From an uncultured bacterium (GTDB taxonomy: Bacteria; Patescibacteriota; Minisyncoccia; UBA6257; GWB1-50-10): 64,000 bases of DNA. The stretch lies in NCBI GenBank assembly GCA_963722655.1, contig CAVRNT010000002.1:138520-202519 (forward strand), written 5' to 3'. The notes under the pieces are model-generated. The model had not been told where the DNA came from. It ran no database searches and was given only the letters and a program-made list of their open reading frames with translations. Both the position numbers and the translations under genes were made by a program. Below, in pieces: positions 1,381 through 45,354 of this stretch (the first letter of the stretch is position 1; every line of letters begins with the position of its first letter).

Positions 1381-1817
1381 TGAAGGTCATATTGCTCCAA
1401 GACGTCAAAGGCGTCGGGAAGAGGTACGACGTTAAAGAGGTCTCGGACGGCTACGCCCGGAACTTCCTTTTGCCGAAGAGGGTCGCCGAGGTCGCGACGA
1501 AGGAAAATCTCGATCGTTTGGAAAGACAAAAGGCCGCCTGGGCGGCCGAAAGAGAAGTGCGGGTCGCTAAGTTCAAGGAAGAGGCGAAGAAGCTCGAGGC
1601 GCTCGTTTTGAACTTCACGCTCAAAGCGGGGGAGAAGGGCGAGGCCTTCGGTTCCGTTACGGAAAGCGACATCAAGAGGGAGCTCGCTCAGAGCGGCTTT
1701 CCGGACGTGAAATTAGAACTTCCAAAGCACATTAAAACTTTCGGCGAGCATCTGGTGCCCGCCGATCTCGGAGAAGGAGTGAAAGCGAATCTGAAAGTTA
1801 TCGTATCCAGCGCTTAA
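1380..1817 (+). CDS. rplI: 50S ribosomal protein L9
   Basis: [33 protein letters not shown]... is the typical L9 N-terminus. The ATG overlaps the ctp stop by 1 nt (ATGA). The longer ORF-track start at 1191 is a GC-driven upstream extension. Confidence 0.85.
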
Positions 1818-2086
1818 ACGACGTTCACGACTTTCACCACTTTGCGCTTGCCGTCAAAATGGGTCTTGCGCTTGTCCGTGAACTTCACGACGCCGGTCTT
1901 CACGGCGTAGATCGTGTCGTCGCTCCCGATCCGGACGTTCAAGCCCGGGTGATACTTCGTGCCGCGCTGGCGGATGATGATGGCGCCCGGCTGCGCTTTT
2001 TCGCCCGCGAAAAGTTTGACGCCTAAGCGCTTGGATTCCGATTCCCGTCCTAATTTTGTTGAGCCCTTGGCCTTTGTATGTGCCAT
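1814..2086 (-). CDS. rpmA: 50S ribosomal protein L27
   Basis: 90 aa. [24 protein letters not shown]...[20 protein letters not shown] matches the L27 family. Convergent with rplI. No rplU (L21) immediately upstream. Confidence 0.9.
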
Positions 2087-2129
2087 ACCCTAGAAATTTG
2101 TTGTATAATCCTAATCAAAAGGGAGAGGG

Positions 2130-2279
2130 ATGTCAAATTTCATTAGCCGGTTCAAGAATTGGCGCCGGGAAAAGTGGCCGCAGGTCGTCTTAGCGGCCGG
2201 CTTGCTCGTCGTCGCCGCGCTTGGCTTCGGCATCGGCTATACATCGCGGCGGACCGGGCGAACCGCGCGCCTATCATAA
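2130..2279 (+). CDS. Small hypothetical single-pass membrane protein (49 aa)
   Basis: ATG preceded by AAGGGAGAGGG (Shine-Dalgarno-like) and an upstream TATAAT. Predicted MSNFISRFKNWRREKWPQVVLAAGLLVVAALGFGIGYTSRRTGRTARLS. Below the ORF-track size cutoff. GC matches the genome. Confidence 0.3.
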   Translation: MSNFISRFKNWRREKWPQVVLAAGLLVVAALGFGIGYTSRRTGRTARLS

Positions 2280-2308
2280 TCGAGCAGGGGAATTGTGGGC
2301 AAAATTGA

Positions 2309-2338
2309 TTGACATTCGGACGACGACCGTTTTATAAT
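2309..2338 (+). promoter_or_regulatory. Near-consensus sigma70-type promoter (TTGACA-N18-TATAAT) upstream of the 2426 gene
   Basis: Exact TTGACA and TATAAT hexamers with an 18-nt spacer, about 85 nt upstream of the AAGGAGG RBS of ORF 2426..2926. Confidence 0.45.
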
Positions 2339-2425
2339 CTCATAAAGTGAAACAAGGGCCTGGTAGACCCTTCGTATTTTTCACTGGTACCGGTACTCTT
2401 ACAACTTAACAAAAGGAGGTAAGTC

Positions 2426-2926
2426 ATGGTTGAGGCCCCCGTCTCAATAGTTTCTTCTCAATCGAAGGCCGTCGACACGACGAAGAAAGACGTGCGCGCC
2501 ATCGTTGTCGTCTGTAAATGCTGCAGCCCGTCATCTCAAGGGATCAGAGAAAGGATGGCTTTCTTGAGCCGTCTCAATCTCGATAGCGACCACACTCTGA
2601 TCTTTCCGGTTAAGGGCGGGCCTGTCGCAGTAATGGCTGATGATGTCGCTAACAGCTTAAAGCTGCTAGCCGGCGAATACCCATCAGTATCCAAGGTGGT
2701 AATGCTTGCGAACACGAAATGCGCGTGTGAAGCGGGGATGCAATCCGCACCGTCGCACGGACCGAAGAGCATTAATCAGCAAACCTCGGATCTACTGGCA
2801 TCGCACGTTAAGTTAACCAACGTTCTCCAGGAGGTTAACAATCGACGCGACAGCGGTCATCGGATCGGGATAGAAATGCACCATGACACGGGCGGACCGG
2901 TTCCTCATAAGATCCATTTCGCCTAA
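2426..2926 (+). CDS. Hypothetical Cys-rich protein (166 aa), lower-GC orphan
   Basis: Strong RBS AAGGAGG 7 nt before the ATG. Contains a CKCC motif and a second CAC pair. No recognisable family. GC clearly below the surrounding genes. Followed by an intrinsic terminator. Confidence 0.5.
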   Translation: MVEAPVSIVSSQSKAVDTTKKDVRAIVVVCKCCSPSSQGIRERMAFLSRLNLDSDHTLIFPVKGGPVAVMADDVANSLKLLAGEYPSVSKVVMLANTKCACEAGMQSAPSHGPKSINQQTSDLLASHVKLTNVLQEVNNRRDSGHRIGIEMHHDTGGPVPHKIHFA

Positions 2927-2944
2927 AACTACCAATTAATTTTT

Positions 2945-2990
2945 CAAAAGGCCGCCCTCTTAGGATAAAGGGCGGCTAAAATTTTATTTG
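2945..2990. terminator. Bidirectional intrinsic terminator between convergent genes
   Basis: GCCGCCCT / AGGGCGGC 8-bp stem with a 10-nt loop, flanked by an A-run upstream and ATTTTATTT downstream. Lies between the stops of ORF 2426..2926 (+) and ORF 3037..3795 (-). Confidence 0.5.
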
Positions 2991-3036
2991 CTAGCGAAGA
3001 TCCCCAAACTAGACTGCTGCCGGGCTTGGATTCGAA

Positions 3037-3795
3037 CTAATTGTATCCTACCTTCTTTAACCAATAATCATTCTCCCACTCCCATAACTTTTTCGCGCCC
3101 AGGAAGGCCTGGAAGTCCTCGTGCCAGTAGGGGAACTCCTGAAGTTCCACCCGCCCTTCCATCGGCCCCCATTCGTGCACGCAGGTCTTAGATTTGAGGT
3201 TCTTCGCCAGGCGGATCTTCTCGGTACCGCCCTTCGTCCGCCGCGTTGATTTGCATTTCTTACAGACCTGGTCCTGGTCGATGCGGAGTATCCAGCGCGT
3301 CTCCAAACCCTCAACGCGGTCTTTCATCGCCGCGAGATAGGCGGAGGTCTGGAGGGCATAGTCCCGATAGATGGCCTGGGAGGTCTTGATGTCCAAGATG
3401 CCGACCCGGCCGTCGATCATCCCAATCGCATCCAATGTGCCGGCATATCTTTCTTCGTAGTTCACCAAACGTTTTTCCACGTAATCTTTGTCCACGTGAA
3501 TGCCACGCTTTTCCGAAAATTCCATGAAGGCGTGGACGGCCGGGGCGATCTGAGAGGGGATTTGGACCGGCTCGCCGACCATGATCTTTTCCACCGTTTC
3601 GTGGAGGAGCGTCCCTTCGGCCGCGGACTGCTGTTTGATCTTCTCGCCGGCCTCGAAGTTGTCCAAATTGCCGTAGAAGCGGTAGAGGGCGGGTTTGGCC
3701 TTGATCTCGACGATCTTCGTGACCCGGGGGTACCAAAAGCCGTCGATCTCGTATCCGCAGAGCGCCTTGAACTGGTCCGGGTCGGAGTAGTACAT
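3037..3795 (-). CDS. PD-(D/E)XK nuclease of the RecB/Cas4-like family with a 4-Cys cluster
   Basis: Ordered motifs GTLLHE, AGTLDAIG (motif II Asp), GILDIKTS (D-x-K) and QTSAY (QxxxY, the RecB-family hallmark). One N-terminal Cys (ALCGYE) plus C-terminal CKKC...C, as in Cas4/AddB-type Fe-S nucleases. No cas genes or repeats nearby. Confidence 0.6.
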   Translation of the reverse strand: MYYSDPDQFKALCGYEIDGFWYPRVTKIVEIKAKPALYRFYGNLDNFEAGEKIKQQSAAEGTLLHETVEKIMVGEPVQIPSQIAPAVHAFMEFSEKRGIHVDKDYVEKRLVNYEERYAGTLDAIGMIDGRVGILDIKTSQAIYRDYALQTSAYLAAMKDRVEGLETRWILRIDQDQVCKKCKSTRRTKGGTEKIRLAKNLKSKTCVHEWGPMEGRVELQEFPYWHEDFQAFLGAKKLWEWENDYWLKKVGYN

Positions 3796-3991
3796 TAGGT
3801 AAATTCTAACACCGGAAACGGCCGAAATAAACCCCGAAAACCGGCCCTAAAATCGCTTATACGGGGCTTTAATAGCGTCCGAGAGACATTGCAGGGGAGA
3901 AGGGCAAAAGGGCCTATTTCCTCAATTCAATACTGTCGCACATTATACCTTTTGTGACGGATATATCCATCGTAAAAGGTAGCGGCCATTA

Positions 3992-4444
3992 TTATAGATG
4001 CGCCACTAGGACCTGCAGGAGCTTGATGATGATCTCCCAGATGTAGATCATGAAATTCACCACGGTCTTCACGACGTCGGCCAAACTCGTGCCGACGTTC
4101 TGTGAGAACCAATTATTGATATTGTTCCAAAGGTTAACGAGGCCCGAGACGTCGTAGTTGGACCCGCCGGGTGCCGCATTTTGGGTCGTGACGGTCTGGG
4201 TCTGGCCGGTCGCACTCCCGGCGAGGTTCTGAAGGGCCTGGCCGCCCTGGACCACCTTGGTCGTTATCTGGTTTATCAGGTTCACGACGTCCGTGATGGG
4301 CAAGGTCTGACCGTTGATCCCGCTCAAGGGCTGGGCCGGTTGGGAGGGAAAGTTCGCTGTCTGGGCCTCCCCTACCAAAGGCGAAATTATGAGGGCCGCA
4401 ACGATCATCGCTCCCCAAAATCCTTTCTTCGTCATCTTAGACAT
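3992..4444 (-). CDS. Hypothetical secreted protein (150 aa)
   Basis: N-terminal signal peptide (MSKMTKKGFWGAMIVAALIISPLVGEAQT), Q/T/N-rich middle and a hydrophobic C-terminus. No family recognised. Confidence 0.45.
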   Translation of the reverse strand: MSKMTKKGFWGAMIVAALIISPLVGEAQTANFPSQPAQPLSGINGQTLPITDVVNLINQITTKVVQGGQALQNLAGSATGQTQTVTTQNAAPGGSNYDVSGLVNLWNNINNWFSQNVGTSLADVVKTVVNFMIYIWEIIIKLLQVLVAHL

Positions 4445-4460
4445 TATACCACGCCGCTCG

Positions 4461-5783
4461 TCAATATGCTCCGCGCTGGATGGTCGCGACGTCGCGCATC
4501 AGATAGCTCATCGGATCGATCGTAACCCCGACGGGCACGAGGCCGGCCGCCGGCGCGATGGCCTTGAGCTCGATGCTCGGCGTCCAGTAGAGGCCGAAGT
4601 GGACGTGCCCTCCCTCGGCATAACCGGTCTCCCCCGAATAGCCGATGAGTTGGCCCTTTTTGACCGTATCCCCCGCTTTGACGACCTGGCGTGAAAGGTG
4701 CGCGTAGAGTGTCGTCAGATTGTCCGCGTGGTCGATCATGATGTACTTGCCGTACTGGTACTTTTTCCAGCGCGAAGTGCCGCGGTCGTTGTTGTCCACC
4801 CGGAAGACCGTGCCGTCGGCGGCGGCATAGACGGGCGTCCCGATCGGGACGCCGATATCCACCCCGTTGTGGAAATGATTGCTGTAGGCCGTCTTGGCGT
4901 ATTGGGTGTAGCCGTAAAGCTGGGTTATGATCGGCTCATCGACCGGGAAGGCCAAAAGCCCGGGTAGTTTGGACGGCAGGAGGTTCGGATTGAAGGAGGC
5001 GCGCAATTGGTCTTCGATGCTGCCGATCTCCTGGTCGATGGCGGCTTCTTGGGCGTTGAGCTGGACGATCTGCTGCTGATAGATCTGCTCCTCGCCCTGC
5101 GTCTGGTTCAAAAGGGTCTGTTTGGCCGATTGCTGGTCGCTCAAGATGGACTGCTGATTGGTCAAATTCACCTGCTGTTCCTGTTTCTGTGCCTTGAGCG
5201 AGCTCGCGTCCTGGATGCTCTGCGAGAGCGACGTTTGGAGGTCCTGCAGGTCGGAGATGTTCTGATTGAAGGCCTGGTTCAAAAGCTCCGAGTTCTGGGC
5301 CTCGGCGACGGCATCCGAGAGCTTGCCGCTCTTCAAGATGACGGAGATCGCGTTCGGGCTCTCCTGCTGCTGGATCTCGACCATCAGCTGCGCGAGGGCG
5401 GCGTAGTGGTCTTTGACCTCCTGATTGATCGTCGTGATATTCTGCGAATCTGACTGCATTTGGAGCGTGAGCTTCTGGACCGTGATCTGATTGGACTGAA
5501 TTTGGAGGTTCAGTTGATCGATGTTGTTCGTGAGCGTCTGAACATCATTGCTAAGCGAGGTTTTGGACTGGCTGATCTGGTTCAGCTGGGTTTGGAGGGC
5601 GTCGCGCTGGGCCTGGATCTGCTGGAGTTCCGTGTTCTTGGCGTTGATCTGGTTCTGGAGGGCGTCCGCGGTCGTCGAGGTGGCCGTTTGGGCCGAGACC
5701 GAGCCCGCGGGACCGGCGATCAGAAAAACCGCCGCCCCAGCGACCAAAATAACCGCGAACGCTTTGAAGACCTTCTGGGACAT
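4461..5783 (-). CDS. M23 family metallopeptidase with N-terminal coiled coil (EnvC-like murein hydrolase activator/peptidase)
   Basis: Signal peptide after MSQKV, then a long Q/L-rich coiled-coil region. C-terminal LytM domain with HFHNGVDIG...D...HVHFG (HxxxD / HxH). Start placed at MSQKVFK because the upstream ORF part is Arg/Gly-rich GC noise and GGAAGG lies about 10 nt upstream. About 2 nt downstream of the gltX stop. Confidence 0.8.
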   Translation of the reverse strand: MSQKVFKAFAVILVAGAAVFLIAGPAGSVSAQTATSTTADALQNQINAKNTELQQIQAQRDALQTQLNQISQSKTSLSNDVQTLTNNIDQLNLQIQSNQITVQKLTLQMQSDSQNITTINQEVKDHYAALAQLMVEIQQQESPNAISVILKSGKLSDAVAEAQNSELLNQAFNQNISDLQDLQTSLSQSIQDASSLKAQKQEQQVNLTNQQSILSDQQSAKQTLLNQTQGEEQIYQQQIVQLNAQEAAIDQEIGSIEDQLRASFNPNLLPSKLPGLLAFPVDEPIITQLYGYTQYAKTAYSNHFHNGVDIGVPIGTPVYAAADGTVFRVDNNDRGTSRWKKYQYGKYIMIDHADNLTTLYAHLSRQVVKAGDTVKKGQLIGYSGETGYAEGGHVHFGLYWTPSIELKAIAPAAGLVPVGVTIDPMSYLMRDVATIQRGAY

Positions 5784-14604: not shown

Positions 14605-15624
14605 TCATCCGTGCCTCACTTCAATCACGTCGCCGTCTTGGACAGCATACTCCTTCCCCTCCAACCTTAGCCATCCTTTTTGCTTGGCCGCGGCCCAACC
14701 GCCGGCTTCGATCAGCTTCTGCCAATTCACGACCTCGGCCCGAATGAACTTGTGCTCGAAGTCGGTGTGGATGACGCCCGCCGCCTGCGGCGCCTTCGTC
14801 CCCTTTTCTATCGTCCAAGCCCGCGTTTCGTCCTCGCCGGTAGTGAAGAAGCTGATGAGGTTTAAGATGGCGTAGGCCGCTCGAATCAGGTCCGGCACGG
14901 CGGTCTCGTCCGCGAGGTCCGCGACGACGTATTCAAATCCCATTCCCTTTATCTTCTGCTTCACCGCGTCCGTCGCCTCCTCCGGCGCACCGTTCAAAAG
15001 GAAGAGCTGGGGCTTGGCCGTGAGGAATTGCAATTCGGCTATCCTCGCGTTCTTGAGAATTTCGGAATGTTGCTTGAAGACCAAAAGCTCGCCGCTCTCG
15101 AGCGCCGTTTTGGCCCTTTTGAGCGCCTCCAAATTGGCGAGGGCCGTCTTGTCGCCGCTCCGCGCCTCGCCCTCAACTTTGGAAAGCGCTTTTCCGAGCG
15201 TGTCCAAGTCCTTGAAGATGAGCTCCATCTCGATCGTCTCAACGTCCCGGATCGGATTCACATCACCCTCCACGTGGACGATGTCGCCCTGATTGAACGT
15301 CCGCACGATGTGGACGATGGCTTGGACGTTGCGGATGTTCGCCAGGAACTGATTGCCGAGACCTTCGCCCTTGTTCGCTCCCTTCACTAACCCTGCGATG
15401 TCGTAGAACTCGACGACGGCGGGAATTTTCTTCTTCGAATGGGTCAGGTCTGCAAGCTTGTCGACGCGCTCGTCCGGCACCGCGACGATCCCAACGTTCG
15501 GGTCGATCGTGGCGAATGGATAATTTGCAATATGCACCTCCTGCTTCGTAATCAGCTTAAAAAGAGTGCTTTTCCCTACATTGGGTAACCCAACTATTCC
15601 CATTGCTAGAACATAATGCGACAT
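14605..15624 (-). CDS. ychF: Ribosome-binding ATPase YchF (Obg-family GTPase)
   Basis: GIVGLPNVGKSTLF P-loop, DIAGLVKGA, TGS-like C-terminus. Start at 15624 (MSHYVLAM) or at the internal ATG at 15603 (MGIVG). Confidence 0.85.
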   Translation of the reverse strand: MSHYVLAMGIVGLPNVGKSTLFKLITKQEVHIANYPFATIDPNVGIVAVPDERVDKLADLTHSKKKIPAVVEFYDIAGLVKGANKGEGLGNQFLANIRNVQAIVHIVRTFNQGDIVHVEGDVNPIRDVETIEMELIFKDLDTLGKALSKVEGEARSGDKTALANLEALKRAKTALESGELLVFKQHSEILKNARIAELQFLTAKPQLFLLNGAPEEATDAVKQKIKGMGFEYVVADLADETAVPDLIRAAYAILNLISFFTTGEDETRAWTIEKGTKAPQAAGVIHTDFEHKFIRAEVVNWQKLIEAGGWAAAKQKGWLRLEGKEYAVQDGDVIEVRHG

Positions 15625-15867
15625 TATTTGTAACGCCTACTGGTATGCGACCGTAGACACGTAATTGGATTGGCGACCCGATTATTCTTTCTACTACGTC
15701 CCTAACTATTGCCCTTTTCGTCACAAAGTTCAAGTCCTGAAGCATTTCAGCAGACTCTTTAGCAAATACCTCAATCTGATCTTGAGAAGGCAGAGTTACT
15801 TCATTCATCTCATTCCTTTGCGCTACTGCTTTTGCAAGCTGACTCGTTAGTGAGGTAACTCTATCCC

Positions 15868-16374
15868 TTAACGGATTAACATACTCAGGACCGGGAGGAA
15901 ATCCCCGTCCCCGGAAAGAACGATCGCCCGGTCAAAACTGTCCCTCTCCTTCATGAGATGGAACGTCATGTCGACATCGCAGTTCGCTTTCCGTTTCGTT
16001 GTACCATCATTCTGGTCATAGAGCTTCACAGGTTTGAGGAAGAGGTTATACCCGAACCCACTGAGCTTCTCGTAAAACCGCACGCGCTGGAGATGCCGGC
16101 CGATTAAGAGAAGTTCGGCTTCATTTAACTCCTGTCCCTCGTTCTTGAGGAGAGACACAAGATATTCCTCAAGACGGTTCAGGGGGACGGTTTCATCCTT
16201 CTGGTAATCGAAGGGGAAATCATGAATCTCCACGCCACCGAAATAGAGTACCTGACTTACGTCGTACTTATTCTTTAAGTATTTGAGAAATCTCTTGTAA
16301 TCGATCTTCCATCCCAAGCTTTTTTCTCCTCCGTAAAACAGGTTGGAAGCATCGATGAATGCGTAGGTACGCAT
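15868..16374 (-). CDS. NYN-domain (LabA/PIN-like) protein
   Basis: MRTYAFIDASNLFYG N-terminus and AIVLSGDGDFLPVL near the C-terminus, the two acidic clusters of the NYN/DUF88 fold. Markedly lower GC than flanking ychF/mpg. Confidence 0.6.
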   Translation of the reverse strand: MRTYAFIDASNLFYGGEKSLGWKIDYKRFLKYLKNKYDVSQVLYFGGVEIHDFPFDYQKDETVPLNRLEEYLVSLLKNEGQELNEAELLLIGRHLQRVRFYEKLSGFGYNLFLKPVKLYDQNDGTTKRKANCDVDMTFHLMKERDSFDRAIVLSGDGDFLPVLSMLIR

Positions 16375-16681
16375 GCCCTCATTGTATCGCTATCAGCCCG
16401 CGAAGTGAATGCTGATGCTGTCATGCGGCCATCCTCAGCTCACATCTGGCAGAATTGCCGCTTGCGAGAATTTTACCTCTCTTAAGCTTTGGAATCGGGA
16501 TGTTAAACTCAAACGGTATGGTAGAAATCATCGGAGAATTTTCATATCGTGTTGTGTCCCAACCAAGCCAATGGATAGTTTCATCCCGTTCAGGATAACA
16601 CCGGGTGGTAGATTTGACAAAATGAATTTTATCTGTTAACATTCAAAAAATTCGAGCCATTTAAAATTAAAAGGAGGGTGT

Positions 16682-16942
16682 ATGTTCGAACTCTTGTATT
16701 CGATCAAGATCCCGCTGGCGATAATGTACCTGGCCATAGGCGCGTTAACAGCCCATTGGTATGCAACCAGGGTTTCCGACAACCTGTATTATTGGAAGTA
16801 TCACCAACTTCAGAATGGATCGCGGAAATCCGGTAGGGCGATCGGTCATGTTCACGTGGTTAGTGGCAACGCCGGTAATAGCCGTACGCTGGCATCAATA
16901 CCAGGAGGAATTGCGCCATCCACACCGGCGCCATCATCATGA
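16682..16942 (+). CDS. Small hypothetical membrane protein (86 aa)
   Basis: AAAAGGAGGG RBS 5 nt before the ATG. TTGACA-N17-TAACAT promoter-like element upstream. N-terminal TM helix. An alternative overlapping frame (16761..16967) ends in a His-rich tail. Followed by an intrinsic terminator. Confidence 0.35.
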   Translation: MFELLYSIKIPLAIMYLAIGALTAHWYATRVSDNLYYWKYHQLQNGSRKSGRAIGHVHVVSGNAGNSRTLASIPGGIAPSTPAPSS

Positions 16943-16954
16943 GTTGCGTCATCA

Positions 16955-16995
16955 GGCGGTCCATTGACCGCCCTTTTATTTTATTATTTTGAAAT
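16955..16995 (+). terminator. Intrinsic terminator after the small 16682 ORF
   Basis: GGCGGTC-CATT-GACCGCC hairpin followed by TTTTATTTTATTATTTT. Confidence 0.5.
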
Positions 16996-17500
16996 TGTAC
17001 CTCTTCTTTGACCAAACCGGTCCCGCGTAGTCGATACCGACTCGCGGGCCCTTTCTTATCCCCTTTTTCCCGATCTTCACCCCCCGGTCCTCGAACCAAA
17101 GACCAGTCTTTTTCGAGACCGGTTTTCCGTAAACGCTCCCGTCTATTTTGAAGAATTTGGTCACGCGAGCGGGGCCTTTCACGCCCTCCACGGCGCGTAT
17201 CAGGACGGCCGCCGGGTATCCTTCCTCCCGCGTCACGACGTTCACGAGCCAGTGCATGCCGTAGGTAAAGTACGGATACCAGACGCCCGACTCGCCGAAC
17301 ATCACTTGGTTGCGCGCCGTCTTCCCGCGCGAGGCATGCGAGCCTTTGTCGTGCGGCCCGTCATAGGCTTCCACCTCGGTGATCATCGCCGCGAGCGTCT
17401 TCCCGCGATACCGGCGGACTAGATATTTGCCCAAAAGCCCCTCGGCCACCTTAAGCGTCGGCCGAGCGAAAAATCTTTCAGATAAGTTCCTTGATTTCAT
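16976..17500 (-). CDS. mpg: DNA-3-methyladenine glycosylase (Mpg/AAG family)
   Basis: FFARPTLKVAEGLLGKYLV...TEVEAYDGPHDKGSHASRGKTARNQVMFGESGVWYPYFTYGMHWLVNVV matches the AAG family signature. Confidence 0.8.
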   Translation of the reverse strand: MKSRNLSERFFARPTLKVAEGLLGKYLVRRYRGKTLAAMITEVEAYDGPHDKGSHASRGKTARNQVMFGESGVWYPYFTYGMHWLVNVVTREEGYPAAVLIRAVEGVKGPARVTKFFKIDGSVYGKPVSKKTGLWFEDRGVKIGKKGIRKGPRVGIDYAGPVWSKKRYNFKIIK

Positions 17501-20750: not shown

Positions 20751-21764
20751 TTAGTGCGGGGAAATCAAACCTTGGATGTAATTGAATATACCTTGAATTT
20801 GCCCTCCGATGTTTTGAGGCACCGACAGTGAAGATGAAGAGGATCCGGCCACCTGACGTGGAGGGGACTGAATATTTTTTGGCGTTATTTTGAATAAATT
20901 TCCAATAAAAGAAAGCATCTTTTTAACTCCCGAAATAACAGTGTTCCCTACCGCAATGGCAGCAGTTTTAACCCCGCTGATGATAATACCAAATCCCGTT
21001 TTCCCGCTCTGGACTACATTGTTTGCGGATGGCGCAGCGACTGTCAGGAGAGGCCCGTTTATATTGTTAGGTGACCCCGGCGGCACAAAACGAGGTGGTG
21101 ATGAGGCGGGCGACGCCGTGTGCGGCACCGCAGTTTGAGGGGCACGTGCCGTCGGCGTTTTCGTAGACGGTGGGCTTGGGCTCTGGGATGGGGCTGCCGG
21201 CAGGGCCGCGGGCACACCAATCACCGTTCCGGTTTGTTGGACCGCTGTCGCAGCGCTCGCCAGCGCGACTTCGTAGCTCACCGTCCCGCACGAACTTGTA
21301 TTCGTGCAATTGAAGCTAACCCATCCGATGTTCTCGCCATACGCAAATCCGGAAAAATTGCCGGACCCGTCGATAGTCACGCCGTAACTCACTGTAAGGC
21401 ATGAGGAAGTGTTTGCGCAGCTGAAACTTATCCAGCCGACGTTTTCGCCCCACGCGTAGCCGGAAAGGTTTCCGGAGCCATCGTTCGTAACCCCGTAAGG
21501 CACGGTCAGGCATGAAGAGGTGTTCGAGCAATTCAAACTTATCCAGCCGACGTTCTCCCCCCAAGCGTAGCCAGTAAGCGCGCTTGTGCCTACGTTGACA
21601 TTCCCTTGTGAGGTTCCGAAATTAAGCCAGCCGACGTTCTCCCCCCACGCGTAGGCGTTCGTCGCGTCAATGCCGGCGGCAAGCACATTCGTCCAGGTAA
21701 ATAAAAAAATTAAGAGCCCCATGAGGAGCAGATAGTAATACCTATTTTCACCCAGCTTGCTCAT
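20751..21764 (-). CDS. Secreted repeat protein with four AWGENVGW-type repeats
   Basis: Signal/TM N-terminus, then four roughly 37-aa repeats (GYAWGENVGWISxxCxNTSSCLTVxYGVTxDGSGNxSG), each with a Cys pair. Pro/Ser-rich linker and a hydrophobic C-terminal segment. ATG at 21764 preferred over the GTG at 21785. Confidence 0.6.
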   Translation of the reverse strand: MSKLGENRYYYLLLMGLLIFLFTWTNVLAAGIDATNAYAWGENVGWLNFGTSQGNVNVGTSALTGYAWGENVGWISLNCSNTSSCLTVPYGVTNDGSGNLSGYAWGENVGWISFSCANTSSCLTVSYGVTIDGSGNFSGFAYGENIGWVSFNCTNTSSCGTVSYEVALASAATAVQQTGTVIGVPAALPAAPSQSPSPPSTKTPTARAPQTAVPHTASPASSPPRFVPPGSPNNINGPLLTVAAPSANNVVQSGKTGFGIIISGVKTAAIAVGNTVISGVKKMLSFIGNLFKITPKNIQSPPRQVAGSSSSSLSVPQNIGGQIQGIFNYIQGLISPH

Positions 21765-22036: not shown

Positions 22037-24355
22037 TTATTGCGTTGAAGATGATGCGTCGGAAGATACGCTCGGCGTAGATGTCGCGTCATTTGCCAAC
22101 GGTGTTACGGTTACATCGGTTGACGTTGCCGCGGTCGAAGTCGTCGATGCATCAGGCGATGTCGTCGTGGAAACATCCGTAGGCGTTGGCGTGTTTGCGC
22201 CTACATTTGCCTCGACGTTTTGGTCTGGTGCGGAAAGCAATGGGGCGCTACAGGAACCGGGTGTTTTTACAAAATCGCCGTTTTCAATGACTACGCAGTA
22301 AATTTGCCCGGTCAACCTATCCGTCATTTCAATTTGATCGGTGACCACCTTCCCAGCCGTCAGCACGCCCACCACGAGATTTTTCAATGTCAGCAAACCT
22401 TGCTGAATAGTGGCCCCGATCTGCGTAAAGAACGAAGTGACGGAACCGACGATATCGGTGCTTGCAACGGCCGCCGTCGAGCTCTGCTCCACCTGATAGC
22501 CCGGGGCTAAGAAGAACCCGATATTGATGAAAACCGGAATTTCCCCCGGCGTTGGATCGGAAAAGTTTTCAAGCGCGTAACCCACAATGTCGCCCGAGAG
22601 CGTGGCCTTCATCCCAATGCCAGCTACGGACGAAACCGTAATTGGATCGCCGATGCTTATTTCGCCGTTTTCCGTGGATACTTTGACCGGCACGCGTCCC
22701 TTGAGCGCGACCGGCCGAGTGTCAGCACCGCTCATCCCAAGCGTCACACCAGGTGCGGTGGAAACAACGCCGATCAACCTGCCCCCGTAAGATTGGGCTT
22801 TCACGATGTGTTCAGAAGCAAGGAGGTCGGCCGCAACGAGATCGCCCGCCTCAAGTGTGGGATCGTTCGTTGGGTAGTTTTCGGCGACGTCGATGCCGGT
22901 CACCAAAGTGGACGAGGCATAAATAGTGCCAGCGACCGGTGCAGCGGGACAATTGGTCCCGGTTGCGGCGCCATTGTCGACACACAGACCCCCGTTCGCG
23001 ATGTCCATGTTCTTCTGCGCCGTCCCATTACCCAAAACAAAATCGTAGGCGGGTGTAGTGGTGCCGATACCGATGTTGCCAGCCGATGTAATGTAGAGCA
23101 GTGGCGTTGAGACCGATGAGGAAGTGTAGATAGCCAACAACGGGTTGGTAGAAGTACCTTGGATTGTTAGCTCGGCTGCCATGGTCGTGGTTCCGATACT
23201 TACTAAGGTGTGGAAGGCGTTCGTCGAATAGATACTAGTCCCTGTCGCATTGGTGAACCAGAGGCCAGTGGTTGTGGCGGTTGTGAATGTCCCTGTGGCG
23301 AAGACAAGGGAACTGCCGAAGAGATTGGTGCCGGTGGCATTGGTGAACCAGAGGTTAGTGGTTGTGGCATTGATATGGAAGGCATTGGTCGATGAGGCGA
23401 TGCCTGAAAGGGTGATGTTGGTCCCTGTCGCATTGGTGAACCAGAGGCCAGTGGTTGTGGCGGTTGTGAATGTCCCTGTGGCGAAGACAAGGGAACTGCC
23501 GAAGAGATTGGTGCCGGTGGCATTGGTGAAACTGAAGGTGGTGCTGGTAGCAGAGAGGAAGAAGGCCTTTGCCGAAGAGGCTATGCCGGAGAGGGTGATA
23601 TTGGTCCCTGTCGCATTGGTGAACCAGAGACCTGTCGTTGTGGCGGTTGTGAAGGTACCGGTTGCAAAGACCAATCCAGATCCGAAGAGGCTAGTGCCGG
23701 TGGCGTTAGTGAACCAGAGGTTAGTGGTTGTGGCATTGATATGGAAGGCATTGGTCGATGAGGCGATGCCTGAAAGGGTGATGTTGGTCCCTGTCGCATT
23801 GGTGAACCAGAGGCCAGTGGTTGTGGCGGTTGTGAATGTCCCTGTGGCGAAGACAAGGGAACTGCCGAAGAGATTGGTGCCGGTGGCGTTATTATATGTG
23901 AGAAGATTAGAGAAGGTAGAGGTGCCGGAGACGGAGAGCGAAGTGATGGTGGAAGTGGTGAGAGTTGCCTGACCTGTGTTGCTGATGCGCGTGGTGGTTG
24001 CAATCTCGAGGCCCCCCGTGACAATATTGATGTCCATGTTGGTGAGGGTCGCGTTTCCGGACGAAGAAGCGAACAGGATATTGTTCACAATGTATTTTAG
24101 ATTTTGAATGAGCGTACCGGTCGCGCTCGGCGCAATCGCGGTCGAATCGAAAGTGCCGGCTATCGCGTTATAGACGTCCGAAAGAGAGTTCATCGTGGAG
24201 GCGGGTGAGGTGGATGGCGTTAAACTACCAGCGTGCGCCAAAGAGACCGTGGCAATCAAAGAAAGGCAGACAACTAAAAACAGTTTGGCTAGAACCTTTC
24301 TGCCGTTGCTTCGGGAATATCCTCCCTTAGGTTTTTTACGAGAAACCTGTTTCAA
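22037..24355 (-). CDS. Large secreted T/N/G-rich repeat protein (adhesin- or fibre-like), 772 aa
   Basis: Signal peptide (LSLIATVSLAHA), the conserved N-terminal module, then about 3.6 near-identical 60-aa repeats (NATGTNLFGSSLVFATGTFTTATTTGLWFT / NATGTNITLSGIASSTNAFHINATTTNLWFT). A Cys-pair segment (CVDNGAATGTNC), a beta-rich C-terminal domain and an S/T-rich tail. Promoter-like TATAAT plus AGGGGG RBS upstream at 24356-24420. Confidence 0.7.
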   Translation of the reverse strand: MKQVSRKKPKGGYSRSNGRKVLAKLFLVVCLSLIATVSLAHAGSLTPSTSPASTMNSLSDVYNAIAGTFDSTAIAPSATGTLIQNLKYIVNNILFASSSGNATLTNMDINIVTGGLEIATTTRISNTGQATLTTSTITSLSVSGTSTFSNLLTYNNATGTNLFGSSLVFATGTFTTATTTGLWFTNATGTNITLSGIASSTNAFHINATTTNLWFTNATGTSLFGSGLVFATGTFTTATTTGLWFTNATGTNITLSGIASSAKAFFLSATSTTFSFTNATGTNLFGSSLVFATGTFTTATTTGLWFTNATGTNITLSGIASSTNAFHINATTTNLWFTNATGTNLFGSSLVFATGTFTTATTTGLWFTNATGTSIYSTNAFHTLVSIGTTTMAAELTIQGTSTNPLLAIYTSSSVSTPLLYITSAGNIGIGTTTPAYDFVLGNGTAQKNMDIANGGLCVDNGAATGTNCPAAPVAGTIYASSTLVTGIDVAENYPTNDPTLEAGDLVAADLLASEHIVKAQSYGGRLIGVVSTAPGVTLGMSGADTRPVALKGRVPVKVSTENGEISIGDPITVSSVAGIGMKATLSGDIVGYALENFSDPTPGEIPVFINIGFFLAPGYQVEQSSTAAVASTDIVGSVTSFFTQIGATIQQGLLTLKNLVVGVLTAGKVVTDQIEMTDRLTGQIYCVVIENGDFVKTPGSCSAPLLSAPDQNVEANVGANTPTPTDVSTTTSPDASTTSTAATSTDVTVTPLANDATSTPSVSSDASSSTQ
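23239..23890. repeat. Tandem DNA repeats (about 180-nt unit, about 3.6 copies) inside the giant surface-protein gene
   Basis: Near-identical units begin near 23239, 23420, 23600 and 23780. They are in frame with the 60-aa protein repeats and create a spurious 240-aa antisense ORF (23250..23972). Confidence 0.8.
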
Positions 24356-39321: not shown

Positions 39322-41073
39322 ATGGCAAAAGTTGAAAAGATAGACGGCATTCGGCACTCGCTGGCGCACCTCCTCGCCGCTGCGGTTTTGAAGAAGTTCC
39401 CAAAGGCGAAGCTAGGCGTTGGGCCGGTCATCGAGAACGGCTTTTATTACGACTTCAAACTCCCCCGCCCCCTCACGCCCGACGACCTCAAGGAGTTCGA
39501 GCAGACAATGCGCGACATCATTTCCCAAAAACTCCCCTTCAAAGGCGAGAAGATTACGCCCGCGCAGGCGAAAAAAATATTCAAAGACCAACCCTTCAAG
39601 CTAGAACTCATCAAGGATTTCACGAAAGCAAAGAGCCCGCTGACCGTCTACCATACCGGCAAGGTCTTTTTCGACCTCTGCCGCGGCGGCCACGTCAAAA
39701 ACACCTCGGAGATAAATCCCTCGGCCTTCAAGTTGGACAGGATCGCCGGCGCCTATTGGAGGGGCAACGAGAAGAACCCGCAGCTCCAGCGCATCTACGG
39801 TCTGGCCTTCGAGACCAAGAAGGAGCTGGACGACCATCTCGCGATGATGGAAGAGGCCAAGCGCCGCGATCACCGCGAGATCGGCAAGAAGCAAGAGCTA
39901 TTTGCCTTCGACGACCTTCTCGGCCCCGGCCTGCCGCTCTGGCTCCCCAAAGGCACCATCATCAAGGACGAGATAGAAAAGTTCGCCAAGGAGATGGAGG
40001 AAAAGTACGGCTACGTGAGGGTCTCGACGCCCCATATCGCGAAGCAGAAGCTTTTTGAGACCTCCGGCCACCTGCCGCACTATGCCGACTCGATGTTCCC
40101 GGCGATGAAGCTTGATGACGGCAACTACTACTTGAAGGCGATGAACTGCCCCATTCACCACCTCATTTACAGATCCTCCCCCCGGAGCTACCGCGAACTC
40201 CCCTTGCGCCTGGCCGAATACGGCACCGTCTACCGCAACGAGCTTTCCGGCACGCTCGCCGGGCTATTGCGCGTCCGGATGCTCTCGATGAACGACGCCC
40301 ATATTTACTGCCGGGCCGACCAAGTCGAGGAAGAGTTCAAGAAAGTGGTCGAGCTCACGCTCCACTACTTCAAGATCTTTGGGTTGAAGAACTATTCCTT
40401 CCGCCTCTCGCTCTGGGACCCGAATAACAAGGAAAAGTACATCAACGAGCCGAAGAATTGGAAAATGGCTGAAGACATCCTGCGAAAGATCCTCACTAAC
40501 TTGGGCGTGAGCTTCGTGGAGGCCAAAAACGAGGCGGCCTTTTACGGCCCGAAGGTGGATATCCAGTACCGCTCCGTCTCCGGCCGGGAAGAGACGATGT
40601 CCACGATTCAGCTCGACTTCGCGGCCAAGAAGCGCTTCGGCCTCGTCTATCACGACCGGGACGGCAAGGAAAACGGCGAGGTCTTTGTTATCCACCGCGC
40701 TCCGCTCTCGACCCACGAGCGGTTCATCGCCTATCTCATCGAGCACTACGCCGGCGAGTGGCCCGTGTGGCTTTCTCCCGTCCAGGCGCGCGTCATCCCA
40801 ATCGCCGATCGGCACACTGAATATGCCAAGCGAGCGGTGGAGGAACTGAAAAAGAACGGCTTGCGCGCCGACATCGCTTCTTCCGGCGAGACCCTTGGCA
40901 AGAACATCCGCGAGGCCGAGCTTCAGAAGATTCCTTATATCCTCGTCGTCGGCGATAAGGAGGTGGAAAGTAAGCTCATTAACGTCCGCGAAAGGCACAA
41001 AAAGGAGACGGTCACGATGAGTGCGATGAAGTTCATTGAGAAGGTCAAGCAGGAAGTAGAGGAGAAAAAATAA
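39322..41073 (+). CDS. thrS: Threonyl-tRNA synthetase (lacking the N-terminal TGS domain)
   Basis: Second-additional/editing domain HSLAHLLAAAV, class II motifs, C-terminal anticodon-binding domain. 583 aa. Confidence 0.9.
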   Translation: MAKVEKIDGIRHSLAHLLAAAVLKKFPKAKLGVGPVIENGFYYDFKLPRPLTPDDLKEFEQTMRDIISQKLPFKGEKITPAQAKKIFKDQPFKLELIKDFTKAKSPLTVYHTGKVFFDLCRGGHVKNTSEINPSAFKLDRIAGAYWRGNEKNPQLQRIYGLAFETKKELDDHLAMMEEAKRRDHREIGKKQELFAFDDLLGPGLPLWLPKGTIIKDEIEKFAKEMEEKYGYVRVSTPHIAKQKLFETSGHLPHYADSMFPAMKLDDGNYYLKAMNCPIHHLIYRSSPRSYRELPLRLAEYGTVYRNELSGTLAGLLRVRMLSMNDAHIYCRADQVEEEFKKVVELTLHYFKIFGLKNYSFRLSLWDPNNKEKYINEPKNWKMAEDILRKILTNLGVSFVEAKNEAAFYGPKVDIQYRSVSGREETMSTIQLDFAAKKRFGLVYHDRDGKENGEVFVIHRAPLSTHERFIAYLIEHYAGEWPVWLSPVQARVIPIADRHTEYAKRAVEELKKNGLRADIASSGETLGKNIREAELQKIPYILVVGDKEVESKLINVRERHKKETVTMSAMKFIEKVKQEVEEKK

Positions 41074-41098
41074 AAGGTGGTTCAGAGAACCACCTGGG
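41060..41098 (-). terminator. Intrinsic terminator for the small minus-strand ORF
   Basis: Perfect 8-bp GGTGGTTC-AGAG-GAACCACC hairpin. On the minus strand it is followed by TTTTATTTTTT, which overlaps the last thrS codons. Confidence 0.45.
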
Positions 41099-41115
41099 CG
41101 TTAGATAGATTACAT

Positions 41116-41241
41116 TCAGATGAAGAGGGCCGTACCGTCTTCTTCAACATCAACGGCGGGACCATTGTTCCGTCGGGCGATGTAAGCGATCGCTCCGGTC
41201 AAAACGACGACCGTTACCAAAGTAAACAGCCACTTTTTCAA
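41116..41241 (-). CDS. Small hypothetical single-TM protein (41 aa, TTG start)
   Basis: AAAGGGAGG RBS 7 nt before a TTG. Predicted MKKWLFTLVTVVVLTGAIAYIARRNNGPAVDVEEDGTALFI, followed by the terminator above. Antisense to the ORF-track GTG-start ORF 41077..41271. Confidence 0.35.
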   Translation of the reverse strand: MKKWLFTLVTVVVLTGAIAYIARRNNGPAVDVEEDGTALFI

Positions 41242-41279
41242 GGTACTACCTCCCTTTTATTTCCGGTATAATACCATAA

Positions 41280-42143
41280 ATGCTTAAAAAGTCAACAATG
41301 CAGAAACTCCTCGTTATCGTGGGGCCGACCGCCTCGGGCAAGAGCGCCTTGGCGGTCAAGCTCGCCAGGCAATTCAACGGTGAGGTAATTTCCGCCGATT
41401 CCCGCCAGGTCTATAAGGGTCTCGATATCGGCACGGGCAAAATCACCAACAAGGAGATGGGCGGCATTCCCCACCACCTCCTGGACGTCGCAAGTCCCCG
41501 GCGCGTCTTTACGGTCACCGATTTCAAGCGCCTGGCGGAAAAAAAGATAAAAGAGATATCCTGCCGAGGTAAGCTGCCCATCGTTTGCGGCGGAGCGGGA
41601 TTTTACGTTCAAGCCGTCACGGATGGCCTGGTTTTACCGAACGTCCCGCCGAATCCGAAGTTCCGAGCGCGCCTCGCCAAGAGATCGGCCGCAGAGCTCG
41701 CGGCCATGTTGAAGAAAATGGACCCGGCGCGATTCAAGACGATAGACGTCAAAAATCCGGTGCGCCTCATCCGGGCCATAGAAATTGTCAAGGCGCTCGG
41801 GAAGGTGCCTAAAATGGAAACGGGGCCCACTAACACTGGCGCGATGATCATCGGCCTGAATCCTGGAACCGAAAAACTAAAAAAATCTGTTTTAACTCGC
41901 GTCAAGAAAATGATCAATCTTGGTTTGATCGATGAAACCAAGCGGCTTCTAAAAACCGGGGTCGGAAAGAAAAGGATGTACGAATTCGGCTTCGAATACC
42001 GGGACGTCCTGAGGTATCTCGATGGCGGGATGCAAACGAAGAAGGAGCTGATCGATGCGATCGTGAGCGACACGCTGAAGTACGCCAAGCACCAGATGAC
42101 GTGGTTTAAGAGAGATAAGAGGATCCATTGGGTCAAAAACTAA
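41280..42143 (+). CDS. miaA: tRNA dimethylallyltransferase
   Basis: LVIVGPTASGKSALAVKLARQFNGEVISADSRQVYKGLDIGTGK matches the MiaA P-loop N-terminus. Confidence 0.85.
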   Translation: MLKKSTMQKLLVIVGPTASGKSALAVKLARQFNGEVISADSRQVYKGLDIGTGKITNKEMGGIPHHLLDVASPRRVFTVTDFKRLAEKKIKEISCRGKLPIVCGGAGFYVQAVTDGLVLPNVPPNPKFRARLAKRSAAELAAMLKKMDPARFKTIDVKNPVRLIRAIEIVKALGKVPKMETGPTNTGAMIIGLNPGTEKLKKSVLTRVKKMINLGLIDETKRLLKTGVGKKRMYEFGFEYRDVLRYLDGGMQTKKELIDAIVSDTLKYAKHQMTWFKRDKRIHWVKN

Positions 42144-42194
42144 AGAGAAGCCGAGTTTGACGTAAAAAAATTTCTATCCTAACATAAAAGCATT

Positions 42195-42389
42195 ATGGGT
42201 GGCGTACCTACAAAACATCATTCTAAATCAAAGGTGGGCCGGCGGCGGTCCCAGCTCGCGCTGAGGAAAGTCAACTTGGTGGTCTGCCCGAACTGCAAAG
42301 GCCCGACCCTGCCGCACCGGATTTGCCCGAACTGCGGCACGTATGTAAAGACCGGTTTAAAACCGAAAACGACGCAAAAAGCCTCTTAG
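42195..42389 (+). CDS. rpmF: 50S ribosomal protein L32 (zinc-ribbon type)
   Basis: 64 aa. [15 protein letters not shown]...[20 protein letters not shown] matches the CxxC...CxxC L32 family. Confidence 0.7.
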
Positions 42390-42402
42390 CTCTTTACCAT
42401 CC

Positions 42403-42885
42403 ATGGCGACCCGCCATTTGGCCCGAACGATAGTCCTCCAGTCGCTCTACGAGTGGGATTTTTACAACCGCGAGACCGATCTCACGACCATCATCGAACG
42501 GAACTTGAACGAATTCGGCCCCGGCATCGACGAGCCGGATTTTGTTTGGCGCATCGCGAAAGGCGTCATTGAACATCTCAAGGATTTAGATGCCACGATT
42601 GTCCGCGTTGCCCCCGAGTGGCCGCTCCACCAGATCGCCATCATCGACCGGAACGTCCTCCGGATCGGCCTATACGAGCTAATGTACGCCGACCAAAGCG
42701 AGGTCCCGCCCAAGGTCGCCATCAACGAGGCGATCGAGATCGCCAAGAACTATGGCGGCCAGAACTCGCCAAAGTTCGTGAACGGGGTCTTAGGCACCGT
42801 CTACCGCGAAATGGAAGCGGCCGGCAAGATACCGAAACAAGAGGAAAAAAAAGAGAAGGATAAAAAAGACGCCCCGGAAAAATAA
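42403..42885 (+). CDS. nusB: Transcription antitermination factor NusB
   Basis: [16 protein letters not shown]...[51 protein letters not shown]. Confidence 0.8.
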
Positions 42886-42907
42886 CGGGGCGTTGAATTT
42901 ACGATGA

Positions 42908-43699: not shown

Positions 43700-43829
43700 T
43701 ATTTTCTCCTTTTCAAAAAACCAACTTTAGAGTACCAGCCGCAACGGGGGTTGTAAACCGTTGACACCGCACCCGGTTTTGCCTAAGGTAAGCGTGGTAA
43801 CTATACAACTATAAACAAGGAGAATTGCG

Positions 43830-45334: not shown

Positions 45335-45354
45335 TACCGGAAACGGGGCTTTTA

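Follow-up and report, generated by a model that had tools for sequence, protein, structure and literature searches.

The locus considered here is a stretch of about 1.9 kb (positions 2.1-4.0 kb) of a 64-kb window, a term we use for the whole piece of DNA that was analyzed. It holds two convergent genes, one for a 166-amino-acid (aa) cysteine-rich protein and the other for a 252-aa nuclease of predicted RecB type, together with noncoding elements that are conserved in related genomes. An initial annotation of the same DNA had read this stretch as a horizontally acquired islet; our comparative analysis points instead to a conserved segment of the chromosome of the Patescibacteria. Positions 1500-4800 of the window were read directly, and a listing of open reading frames (ORFs) was made for the same DNA. 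The features found are the following:

ends at 1817, forward strand: rplI
1814-2086, reverse strand: rpmA (ribosomal protein L27; Pfam Ribosomal_L27, E 1.4e-31), the left anchor of the conserved neighborhood
2130-2279, forward strand: ORF for a small membrane protein of 49 aa, with homologs beside rpmA in relatives
2309-2338, forward strand: sigma-70-type promoter TTGACA-N18-TATAAT for the 166-aa gene, with 12/12 consensus matches
2345-2425, forward strand: 5' leader of the 166-aa gene, about 85 nt, recognized by its conservation across loci
2413-2419, forward strand: Shine-Dalgarno (SD) sequence AAGGAGG, 6 nt ahead of the ATG at 2426
2426-2926, forward strand: cysteine-rich ORF of 166 aa with a CKCC motif, cytoplasmic, from a rare and fast-diverging family
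2429-2448, forward strand: hairpin just after the start codon, GUUGAGGC-CCCC-GUCUCAAU, from a hairpin scan and RNA folds
2950-2977, both strands: bidirectional intrinsic terminator with a GC-rich stem of 9-10 bp and A-rich and T-rich flanks
3037-3795, reverse strand: predicted 252-aa RecB-type PD-(D/E)XK exonuclease, MGME1-like by motifs and by profile and structure matches
3803-3808, reverse strand: -10-like hexamer TAGAAT, separated by exactly 7 nt from the nuclease ATG that follows
3825-3935, reverse strand: conserved noncoding block, about 110 nt long, with a short hairpin and a U-run at its end
3942-3981, reverse strand: predicted promoter (promoter scan) with TATAAT at 3942-3947, within palindromes, one of them with 22-nt arms at 3946-3981
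3992-4444, reverse strand: ORF of 150 aa with a hydrophobic N-terminus and no family, a secreted-protein candidate beside the M23 peptidase gene

Beyond the 150-aa ORF, the gene order of the window continues with the M23 peptidase gene and then gltX. The exact promoter, the AAGGAGG ribosome-binding site, and the shared hairpin terminator proposed in the initial annotation are all present; the 49-aa ORF, the leader at 2345-2425, and the conserved block with its palindromes (3825-3981) had been missed.

The nuclease belongs to a large family. Among 5.8 billion protein clusters, we detected 2,125 homologs, and the best 120 of these are 61-93% identical to it and nearly all 252-264 aa long. Those with a named source come from the Patescibacteria (Jorgensen-, Wolfe- and Brennerbacteria, Paceibacterota, and Minisyncoccia), and one cluster member carries the label “Patescibacteria group bacterium.” RecB-type nucleases are defined by motifs I, Ia (a histidine), II, III, and IV (QhxxY), as laid out in the MGME1 paper (PMC6237815), and the complete set is present here as E60, H65, D122, D135-I-K137, and Q149-T-S-A-Y153. 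In an alignment of 20 sequences the invariant residues comprise E60, H65, E69, D122, D135-x-K137, Q140, Y146, and Q149...Y153, as well as C178, C181, C205, and H207, which make up a CxxC...CxH insertion after motif IV. Human MGME1 is the top match by both sequence and structure, with its PDB entry reached by the nuclease profile at E 1.6e-4 and the motifs aligned. The predicted fold of the protein is RecB-like. Among the PHROGs families, it matches a phage-type exonuclease (E 7e-21).

The initial annotation had described this gene as a convergent nuclease of RecB/Cas4 type. The convergent orientation and the PD-(D/E)XK, RecB-type assignment hold, and the Cas4 part falls away. The Cas4 family is defined by an iron-sulfur (Fe-S) module with four conserved cysteines (PMC5704561), which is absent from the nuclease, and the 20-sequence alignment contains no conserved N-terminal cysteine. 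Both Cas4 hidden Markov models score far below their curated cut-offs (16.5 versus 65 bits for TIGR00372 and 13.5 versus 22.7 bits for PF01930), PADLOC produced only weak matches to Cas4 (E 1.6e-4 or weaker) and DruK, and neither cas1, cas2, nor a CRISPR array accompanies the nuclease in the 64-kb window. We rejected a Cas4 identity on these grounds: scores under the cut-offs, a missing Fe-S module, and no cas1, cas2, or array. Compared with Cas4 and the solo-Cas4 proteins of Candidate Phyla Radiation (CPR) bacteria, the nuclease has three cysteines and one histidine, and these are placed differently. Compared with MGME1 and the RecB-type domains of RecB, AddA, Dna2, and RecE, it is a bacterial, stand-alone protein of 252 aa, only 17% identical to MGME1 and distinguished from it by the CxxC...CxH insertion. 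Because all RecB-type motifs are present and the Cas4 Fe-S module is absent, we classify it as a putative MGME1-like RecB-type exonuclease and not as Cas4. Such an enzyme would degrade or trim the ends of single-stranded DNA (ssDNA) through a metal site formed by D122 and D135-x-K137, and the CxxC...CxH module may serve as a structural metal or DNA-binding element. Literature searches on bacterial MGME1 homologs brought up nothing specific to this locus.

The composition of the stretch does not set the nuclease apart from its surroundings. The lower GC content noted in the initial annotation is real, at 52% for positions 2001-4000 versus 57% across the whole window, but the window has dips that are as deep or deeper in three other places (15-17, 19-22, and 41-47 kb), and the composition of the nuclease is native. 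Its gene, which occupies 40% of the 1.9 kb, has a GC content at third codon positions (GC3) of 0.787 and a synonymous-codon log-likelihood of 0.217, and the 150-aa ORF has values of 0.78 and 0.155; typical core genes range over 0.75-0.85 and 0.2-0.3. By the same measures both are core-like and the 166-aa gene is atypical (GC3 0.60, log-likelihood -0.06). The dip in GC is therefore composed of three AT-richer spacers and one atypical gene, not of a uniform foreign block.

Gene order supports the same view of the nuclease. In six related contigs we found a common backbone consisting of the S41 peptidase gene, rplI, rpmA, a variable slot, the nuclease, a gene for a 123-150-aa protein, the M23 peptidase gene, and gltX. 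A Mur ligase gene is sometimes inserted between the nuclease and the 123-150-aa protein, and in L031 the right side of the backbone is rearranged. The 150-aa protein of the window (3992-4444, reverse strand) is likewise the neighbor of M23 in all relatives, where it measures 123-150 aa; its identity to the L006 and L028 proteins was put at 62-75%. Given its native composition, its more than 2,000 homologs, and its conserved synteny, we judge the nuclease to be a vertically inherited housekeeping core gene of the Patescibacteria.

The 166-aa protein is of a very different kind. As the initial annotation stated, it falls into no recognizable family: scans of Pfam, NCBIfam, PHROGs, and PADLOC gave no match for the protein itself and no family for its relatives. 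A single close homolog, 54% identical, was found. When 1.84 billion cluster representatives were searched exhaustively with a profile, four more sequences came to light (P0123, P0124, which is a fragment, and P0125-P0127) along with one spurious repeat protein, and an iterated word-indexed search with the six-member alignment yielded no further members. Out of about 15 billion proteins, six are known to belong to this family. Between the 166-aa gene and its ortholog in L001, pN is 0.28 and pS 0.74, and since pN lies well below pS, the ORF is a real coding gene under purifying selection.

Structure prediction for this protein, which the initial annotation had proposed, suggests a fold related to the beta-carbonic anhydrases (beta-CA). 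The AlphaFold2 (AF2) model has a pLDDT of 78.7 and a pTM of 0.75, with a confident core and a disordered segment at residues 1-19. Foldseek ranks the beta-CA CafD first, and two independent structure searches give the beta-CA fold. The zinc ligands of beta-CA sit in the loops after strands 1 and 3. In the alignment and the AF2 model, the first of these loops contains C32 and C33 and the second contains C99, so that the family has cysteines at both ligand positions (C30/C32/C33 and C99). The family motif after strand 1 is CKCCSP or CGCxKCNP, and that after strand 3 is T-x-C; the residues that are invariant throughout the family alignment are C32, C33, P35, C99, H153, and P160, with H153 located on strand 4 of the predicted fold. 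The histidine of the HxxC motif is absent, position -3 from C99 being N, S, D, or K, and the Asp-Arg dyad of the CxDxR motif is missing, with no conserved Asp or Arg at the motif position. None of the six members matches Pfam Pro_CA at E up to 10, and the family profile, run against the sequences of the PDB, returned chance matches only, with no beta-CA among them.

When compared with the known beta-CA proteins (Cab of Methanothermobacter; the fungal CafD, Nce103, and Can2; and the hydrolases of carbonyl sulfide (COS) and carbon disulfide (CS2)), the family shows no detectable sequence similarity and differs in lacking the Asp-Arg dyad, in the replacement of the HxxC histidine, and in its CxC(xx)C / C / H pattern. 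We predict a beta-CA-like fold in which the metal site is probably rewired into a closed, Cys3(His) arrangement; C32, C33, and C99, together with H153, would in all likelihood coordinate a single metal ion or a small Fe-S center. Since the Asp-Arg dyad and the HxxC histidine are lacking, the protein is probably not a standard CO2 hydratase and is more likely a divergent small-molecule hydrolase or a metal- or redox-binding protein. Literature searches on carbonic anhydrases of the Patescibacteria likewise turned up nothing specific to this locus.

In the backbone described above, the 166-aa gene occupies the variable slot, and we refer to the gene found in that slot as the cargo. The cargo follows rpmA and the small membrane-protein ORF in L001, L008/L009, and L028, and the small ORF alone in L010. 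It lies directly next to the nuclease only in the window genome: in L028, two Ser-hydrolase genes stand between them, and in L001 and L010, unrelated genes are found downstream of the cargo. In L006/L007, where the nuclease is 93% identical to that of the window, the same promoter and leader precede a 177-aa cargo, and four further genes separate it from the nuclease. These extra genes (L006 6800-10400, and L007) encode a YbjQ-family protein and family-less proteins of 132, 225, and 270 aa, the last two with a GC3 of about 0.60, and the slot in L006/L007 suggests a hotspot at which genes are gained and lost. BLASTP aligned no part of the window cargo with the 177-aa cargo of L006, and the latter is related to the family only by a profile-level match that covers the CxxC, GG, and C motifs (E 3e-4, probability 40%); its own scans returned a sub-threshold Pfam match to Ntox5 (E 0.032) and no match in PADLOC.

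The contrast between the slot and its flanks is evident from amino-acid identities. Eight flanking proteins were compared, and the S41 peptidase of L006, which is cut by the end of the locus, was ignored. Values for the window against L028 and L006 are:

rpmA: 0.90 with L028, 0.93 with L006
nuclease: 0.88 with L028, 0.93 with L006
gltX: 0.82 with L028, 0.84 with L006
M23 peptidase: 0.72 with L028, 0.78 with L006
rplI: 0.66 with L028, 0.74 with L006
150-aa protein: 0.62 with L028, 0.66 with L006
cargo: 0.23 with L028, 0.29 with L006

The eight flanking proteins are thus 62-93% identical, whereas the cargo is 23-29% identical. At the DNA level, L001 and L006 are at least 90% identical through the small ORF and 100% identical through the leader hairpin; the homology ends just after the ATG and resumes past the terminator at TAGTAATCGATTAAAGTGCTATAAT. 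In this pattern the ORF appears to have been exchanged like a cassette, with the leader ahead of it and the DNA beyond it both conserved. The slot is occupied in all the closest relatives, by very divergent or different genes, and the nuclease is always present. Taken together, the difference in identity between flanks and cargo and the break between L001 and L006 indicate a fixed slot in which the gene is either replaced or subject to exceptionally fast divergence. Around the cargo gene, the order is rpmA, small membrane protein, leader, cargo, and terminator. Its GC3 is 0.60 in the window and 0.57 in L006, both higher-GC genomes, and 0.52 in L008, where it looks native in a low-GC genome; these low values in the window and L006, set against the native-like value in L008, fit an exchange among relatives.

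The two conserved borders of the slot deserve separate mention. On the left, homologs of the small membrane protein, 54-61 aa long, occur in L001, L004, L006, L008, L029, and L030. In the window, a 2-nt insertion relative to L001 shifts the frame at the C-terminus, leaving 49 aa instead of 54-61, and the conserved motif NRAPIIIEQ is encoded in another frame. The frameshifted sequence is identical in the independent assembly L003, and for this reason we take the frameshift to be probably real; the ORF could be a pseudogene or a variant with a different C-terminus. On the right, the terminator hairpin (2950-2977) is flanked by TTTTTCAAAA and AAAATTTTATTT, its folding z is -1.95 on the forward and -2.91 on the reverse strand, and a homologous hairpin is also found 3' of the cargo gene in L001 and L008. 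With a stable fold on both strands and A or T runs on each side, this terminator can serve both convergent genes.

The promoter of the 166-aa gene is the sole perfect match to TTGACA-N18-TATAAT in the 64 kb, with none in 100 shuffles, and each of the five related loci retains TTGAC at -35 along with a -10 element. For the leader that follows, five distinct sequences were compared, among them those of the window, L001, L006, L008, and L010. The leader stem-loop (2346-2385) has an invariant apical loop of 9 nt, CCKGGUAGA (2359-2367), the core GGCCKGGTAGACC is present in every locus carrying the cargo gene, and the spacing from the -10 element to the stem is identical, exactly 7 nt, in all five sequences. 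The 5' arm reads AGTGAAA (AATGAAA in L008) and the 3' arm UUUC(A/G); the outer and inner arms can pair into a long irregular hairpin capped by CCKGGUAGA, with compensatory changes at two inner stem pairs (AU/CG and GC/AU). In all five leaders, a short palindrome centered on GTAC (GCAC in L008), whose arms covary, comes next, and then an A-rich tract leads up to the SD and the ATG. The hairpin just after the start codon is found at the same place in the window, L001, and L010, although L010 encodes different residues there.

A covariance model built from four leaders recovered the L010 leader, on which it had not been trained and which carries an 18-nt insertion, at E 9.5e-5, and it detected no extra copy in the window, L004, L029, L030, or L031. 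Identity within the leader hairpin is 68-100%, versus 43-69% at the third codon positions of the nuclease. The leader (2345-2425) has no match in Rfam 15, where the window at gathering thresholds gives only two tRNAs; scans in E-value mode, for the leader and for the roughly 110-nt block that precedes the nuclease gene, returned chance-level matches only (E 2.7-7.4). Exact-pattern scans for the leader retrieved the already known L006/L007 and five unrelated coding matches from genome contigs, about the number due to chance, and nine further, chance-level matches from metagenome contigs.

In the interpretation that we favor, the leader acts at the RNA level, as a 5'-terminal element of the mRNA that may control stability or translation. 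From the predicted start site, the 166-aa mRNA would begin at, or within 1-2 nt of, the conserved stem-loop, and the stem-loop, the GTAC hairpin, and the post-start hairpin would together control mRNA stability, translation, or both; we saw no sign that the leader stem sequesters the SD. Comparable systems include 5'-terminal stabilizer stem-loops, such as those of the ompA and aprE leaders, and the leader-peptide translational attenuators of the ermC type. Like these, the leader has a stem-loop with which the mRNA is predicted to start and which keeps a fixed spacing to the -10 element, and it contains a short ORF that overlaps the stem upstream of a strong SD. Unlike them, it represents a new sequence family without an Rfam match, and its apical loop is invariant, suggesting specific recognition. 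A role of the leader hairpin as a terminator of the small-ORF transcript was considered and rejected, as the two are separated by the promoter and the hairpin lacks a trailing U-run in 4/5 loci.

Two other interpretations of the leader have to be weighed against this one. The leader could mainly be a leaderless micro-ORF encoding (V/M)KxxPGRPxVxF..., whose translation, or ribosome stalling at PGRP, controls the downstream gene much as in leader-peptide attenuation, so that it would be the peptide that is conserved; in the window, the frame opens with GTG at 2347 and spans 2347-2409 (forward strand), reading VKQGPGRPFVFFTGTGTLTT. A GTG or ATG is found exactly 8 nt after the -10 element in 5/5 loci, with GTG changed to ATG in L008, the frame is open for 13-33 codons in 4/5 loci, and the N-terminus (V/M)KxxPGRPxVxF is common to L001, L006, and L008. 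Furthermore, the two variable positions of the 13-nt core and two nearby positions are synonymous third positions, and the same genomes appear to use leaderless starts of the form -10-N7-ATG for the nuclease. Yet L010 has an in-frame TAG ahead of the conserved core, whose nucleotides are nonetheless perfect; the excess at third positions is not significant (7/13, binomial p ~0.1); the covariation of two stem pairs between codons 3 and 9 is not expected from a peptide model; and neither the lengths nor the C-terminal parts of the peptides are conserved. We regard the micro-ORF as a serious rival to the RNA element, possible though rather less probable as the main function, and the two interpretations are not mutually exclusive. 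It is considerably more doubtful that the inverted repeats of the leader (AGTGAAA...TTTCACT and GGGCC...GACCC) act as DNA operators just downstream of the start site. Both are palindromic and located at about +1 to +40, and an invariant core is what would be expected of a protein-binding site, but the outer arms are about 26-27 nt apart in four loci and about 47 nt apart in L010, a variation that does not suit a fixed dimeric operator, and the inner-stem positions covary instead of being conserved.

The nuclease gene seems to be expressed in another manner. No SD sequence precedes it, and a TAnnAT or TAnnAA hexamer is located exactly 7 nt 5' of the start codon in 7/7 loci (the window, L004, L006, and L028-L031); in L030, the hexamer is retained even within the last part of the Mur ligase gene, which there lies upstream. 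From the missing SD and the fixed spacing we infer that the nuclease mRNA appears to be leaderless and transcribed from the predicted -10 box 7 nt before the ATG, and this -10-N7-ATG pattern suggests leaderless mRNAs in this lineage. The 196-nt spacer upstream of the nuclease (3796-3991), low in GC, is conserved in the window, L006, L028, and L031. Within it, the block of about 110 nt at 3825-3935 is 61-75% identical, above the third-codon-position identity of the adjacent gene; the L006 copy contains a hairpin insertion, and a few pairs of the block covary. Rfam 15 offered no credible family for the block, and identities as the signal recognition particle (SRP) RNA or 6S RNA were rejected because there is no Rfam match and the characteristic motifs are missing. 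An inverted repeat, GTCRCA-N12-TGCGAC, brackets the -10 element TATAAT at 3942-3947 and is found at equivalent sites in L004, L030, and L031 and in a variant form in L028. The palindromes around this promoter (3942-3981) represent a candidate operator, and the block, known from only four sequences, is a candidate for either a structured small RNA or a long regulatory leader, controlled by that operator.

Considering the stretch as a whole, we place a probability of about 0.62 on its being conserved chromosome of the Patescibacteria (Paceibacteria-type), with a core nuclease and a 166-aa gene under a consensus promoter that form separate transcription units and no mobile cassette. Several observations weigh against this reading or parts of it. 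The codon usage of the 166-aa gene is atypical, and some lateral exchange of this gene is likely. The AF2 model was built from only six sequences, the Foldseek TM-scores are modest (0.45-0.57), and the family shows no sequence-level link to beta-CA. For the leader, only five distinct sequences exist, the folding z of the full leader (0.13 to -0.34) and of its hairpins (-1.4 to -2.4) is not exceptional, and one putative stem pair is altered on both sides to a mismatch in L008. The initial annotation had instead taken the whole 2.1-4.0 kb as an apparently horizontally acquired islet whose cysteine-rich protein and Cas4-like nuclease could cooperate in defense or repair, for which the locally lower GC, the atypical codon usage of the 166-aa gene, the weak Cas4 matches, and the convergent arrangement around a common terminator could be cited. 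Against it stand the native composition of the nuclease and its more than 2,000 homologs, its conserved synteny with gltX, M23, and rpmA, and the adjacency of the two genes in this genome only, since the pair is not kept together in L001, L006/L007, L010, or L028. PADLOC matched neither the 166-aa nor the 150-aa protein, and the stretch and its surroundings lack cas genes as well as hallmarks of CRISPR or of mobility: no integrase or transposase ORF lies between 1 and 7 kb of the window, no CRISPR-like array was found in the 64 kb, the repeats flanking the stretch (14-25 nt) are at chance level only, and the nearest tRNA is at 20.3 kb. The islet reading is already largely refuted and highly improbable; horizontal acquisition is contradicted for the nuclease by its GC3 and core synteny, and a foreign origin survives only for the 166-aa gene.

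For that gene's product, the alternative to the predicted closed Cys3(His) site is a true, highly divergent beta-CA that hydrates CO2 or hydrolyzes COS or CS2 at a cysteine-bound zinc. The missing CxDxR dyad and HxxC histidine and the failure of every member to match Pro_CA all disfavor such an enzyme, and a site of three cysteines and a histidine leaves no open coordination position for water; we consider it quite unlikely. Going beyond the chromosomal reading that we prefer, the arrangement of rpmA, small membrane protein, leader, and cargo slot might constitute an undescribed regulated “swap site” of the Paceibacteria, with the block of about 110 nt as a new palindrome-controlled small RNA, an idea that we rate as speculative and on balance unlikely.

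Elsewhere in the window, the low-GC stretches at 15000-17000 and 41000-47000 (0.49-0.52) hold genes with a GC3 of 0.48-0.63; with their deeper dips, they are better candidates for lateral acquisition than the flagged 2.1-4.0 kb. An ORF of 772 aa (22037-24355, reverse strand; GC3 0.62) includes 3.6 tandem copies of a 183-nt unit at 23238-23887, with 82% matches, and a 111-nt repeat is located at 21301-21572 inside a neighboring ORF of 344 aa. Both are probably repeat-rich surface proteins.

These results remove a false lead, as the stretch is neither a defense island nor a Cas4 locus, and they provide the first fold-level annotations for two “hypothetical proteins” of the candidate phyla, the nuclease and the 166-aa protein. 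The nuclease is among the most conserved unannotated proteins of the Paceibacteria, and the fold-level annotation of a highly conserved CPR nuclease as MGME1-like, with an mRNA inferred to be leaderless, is of interest in itself; its likeness to MGME1 suggests a compact enzyme for processing ssDNA ends in organisms with minimal repair machinery. Also of interest is a very rare Cys3His family with a predicted beta-CA fold in a fixed slot of fast turnover, which would extend the beta-CA fold to a cysteine-rich, probably non-hydratase metal site. If the swap-site reading were true, a cis-regulatory RNA or a leaderless leader peptide would control hypervariable metalloproteins of this kind, the cargo would be exchanged between lineages through recombination in the conserved leader and terminator, and the pattern would be a signature of diversifying or conflict-driven selection. 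The stretch also contributes two undescribed conserved noncoding elements without Rfam matches. The leader, the candidate small RNA, and the -10-N7-ATG pattern offer testable handles on gene regulation in a group for which there is little experimental knowledge.

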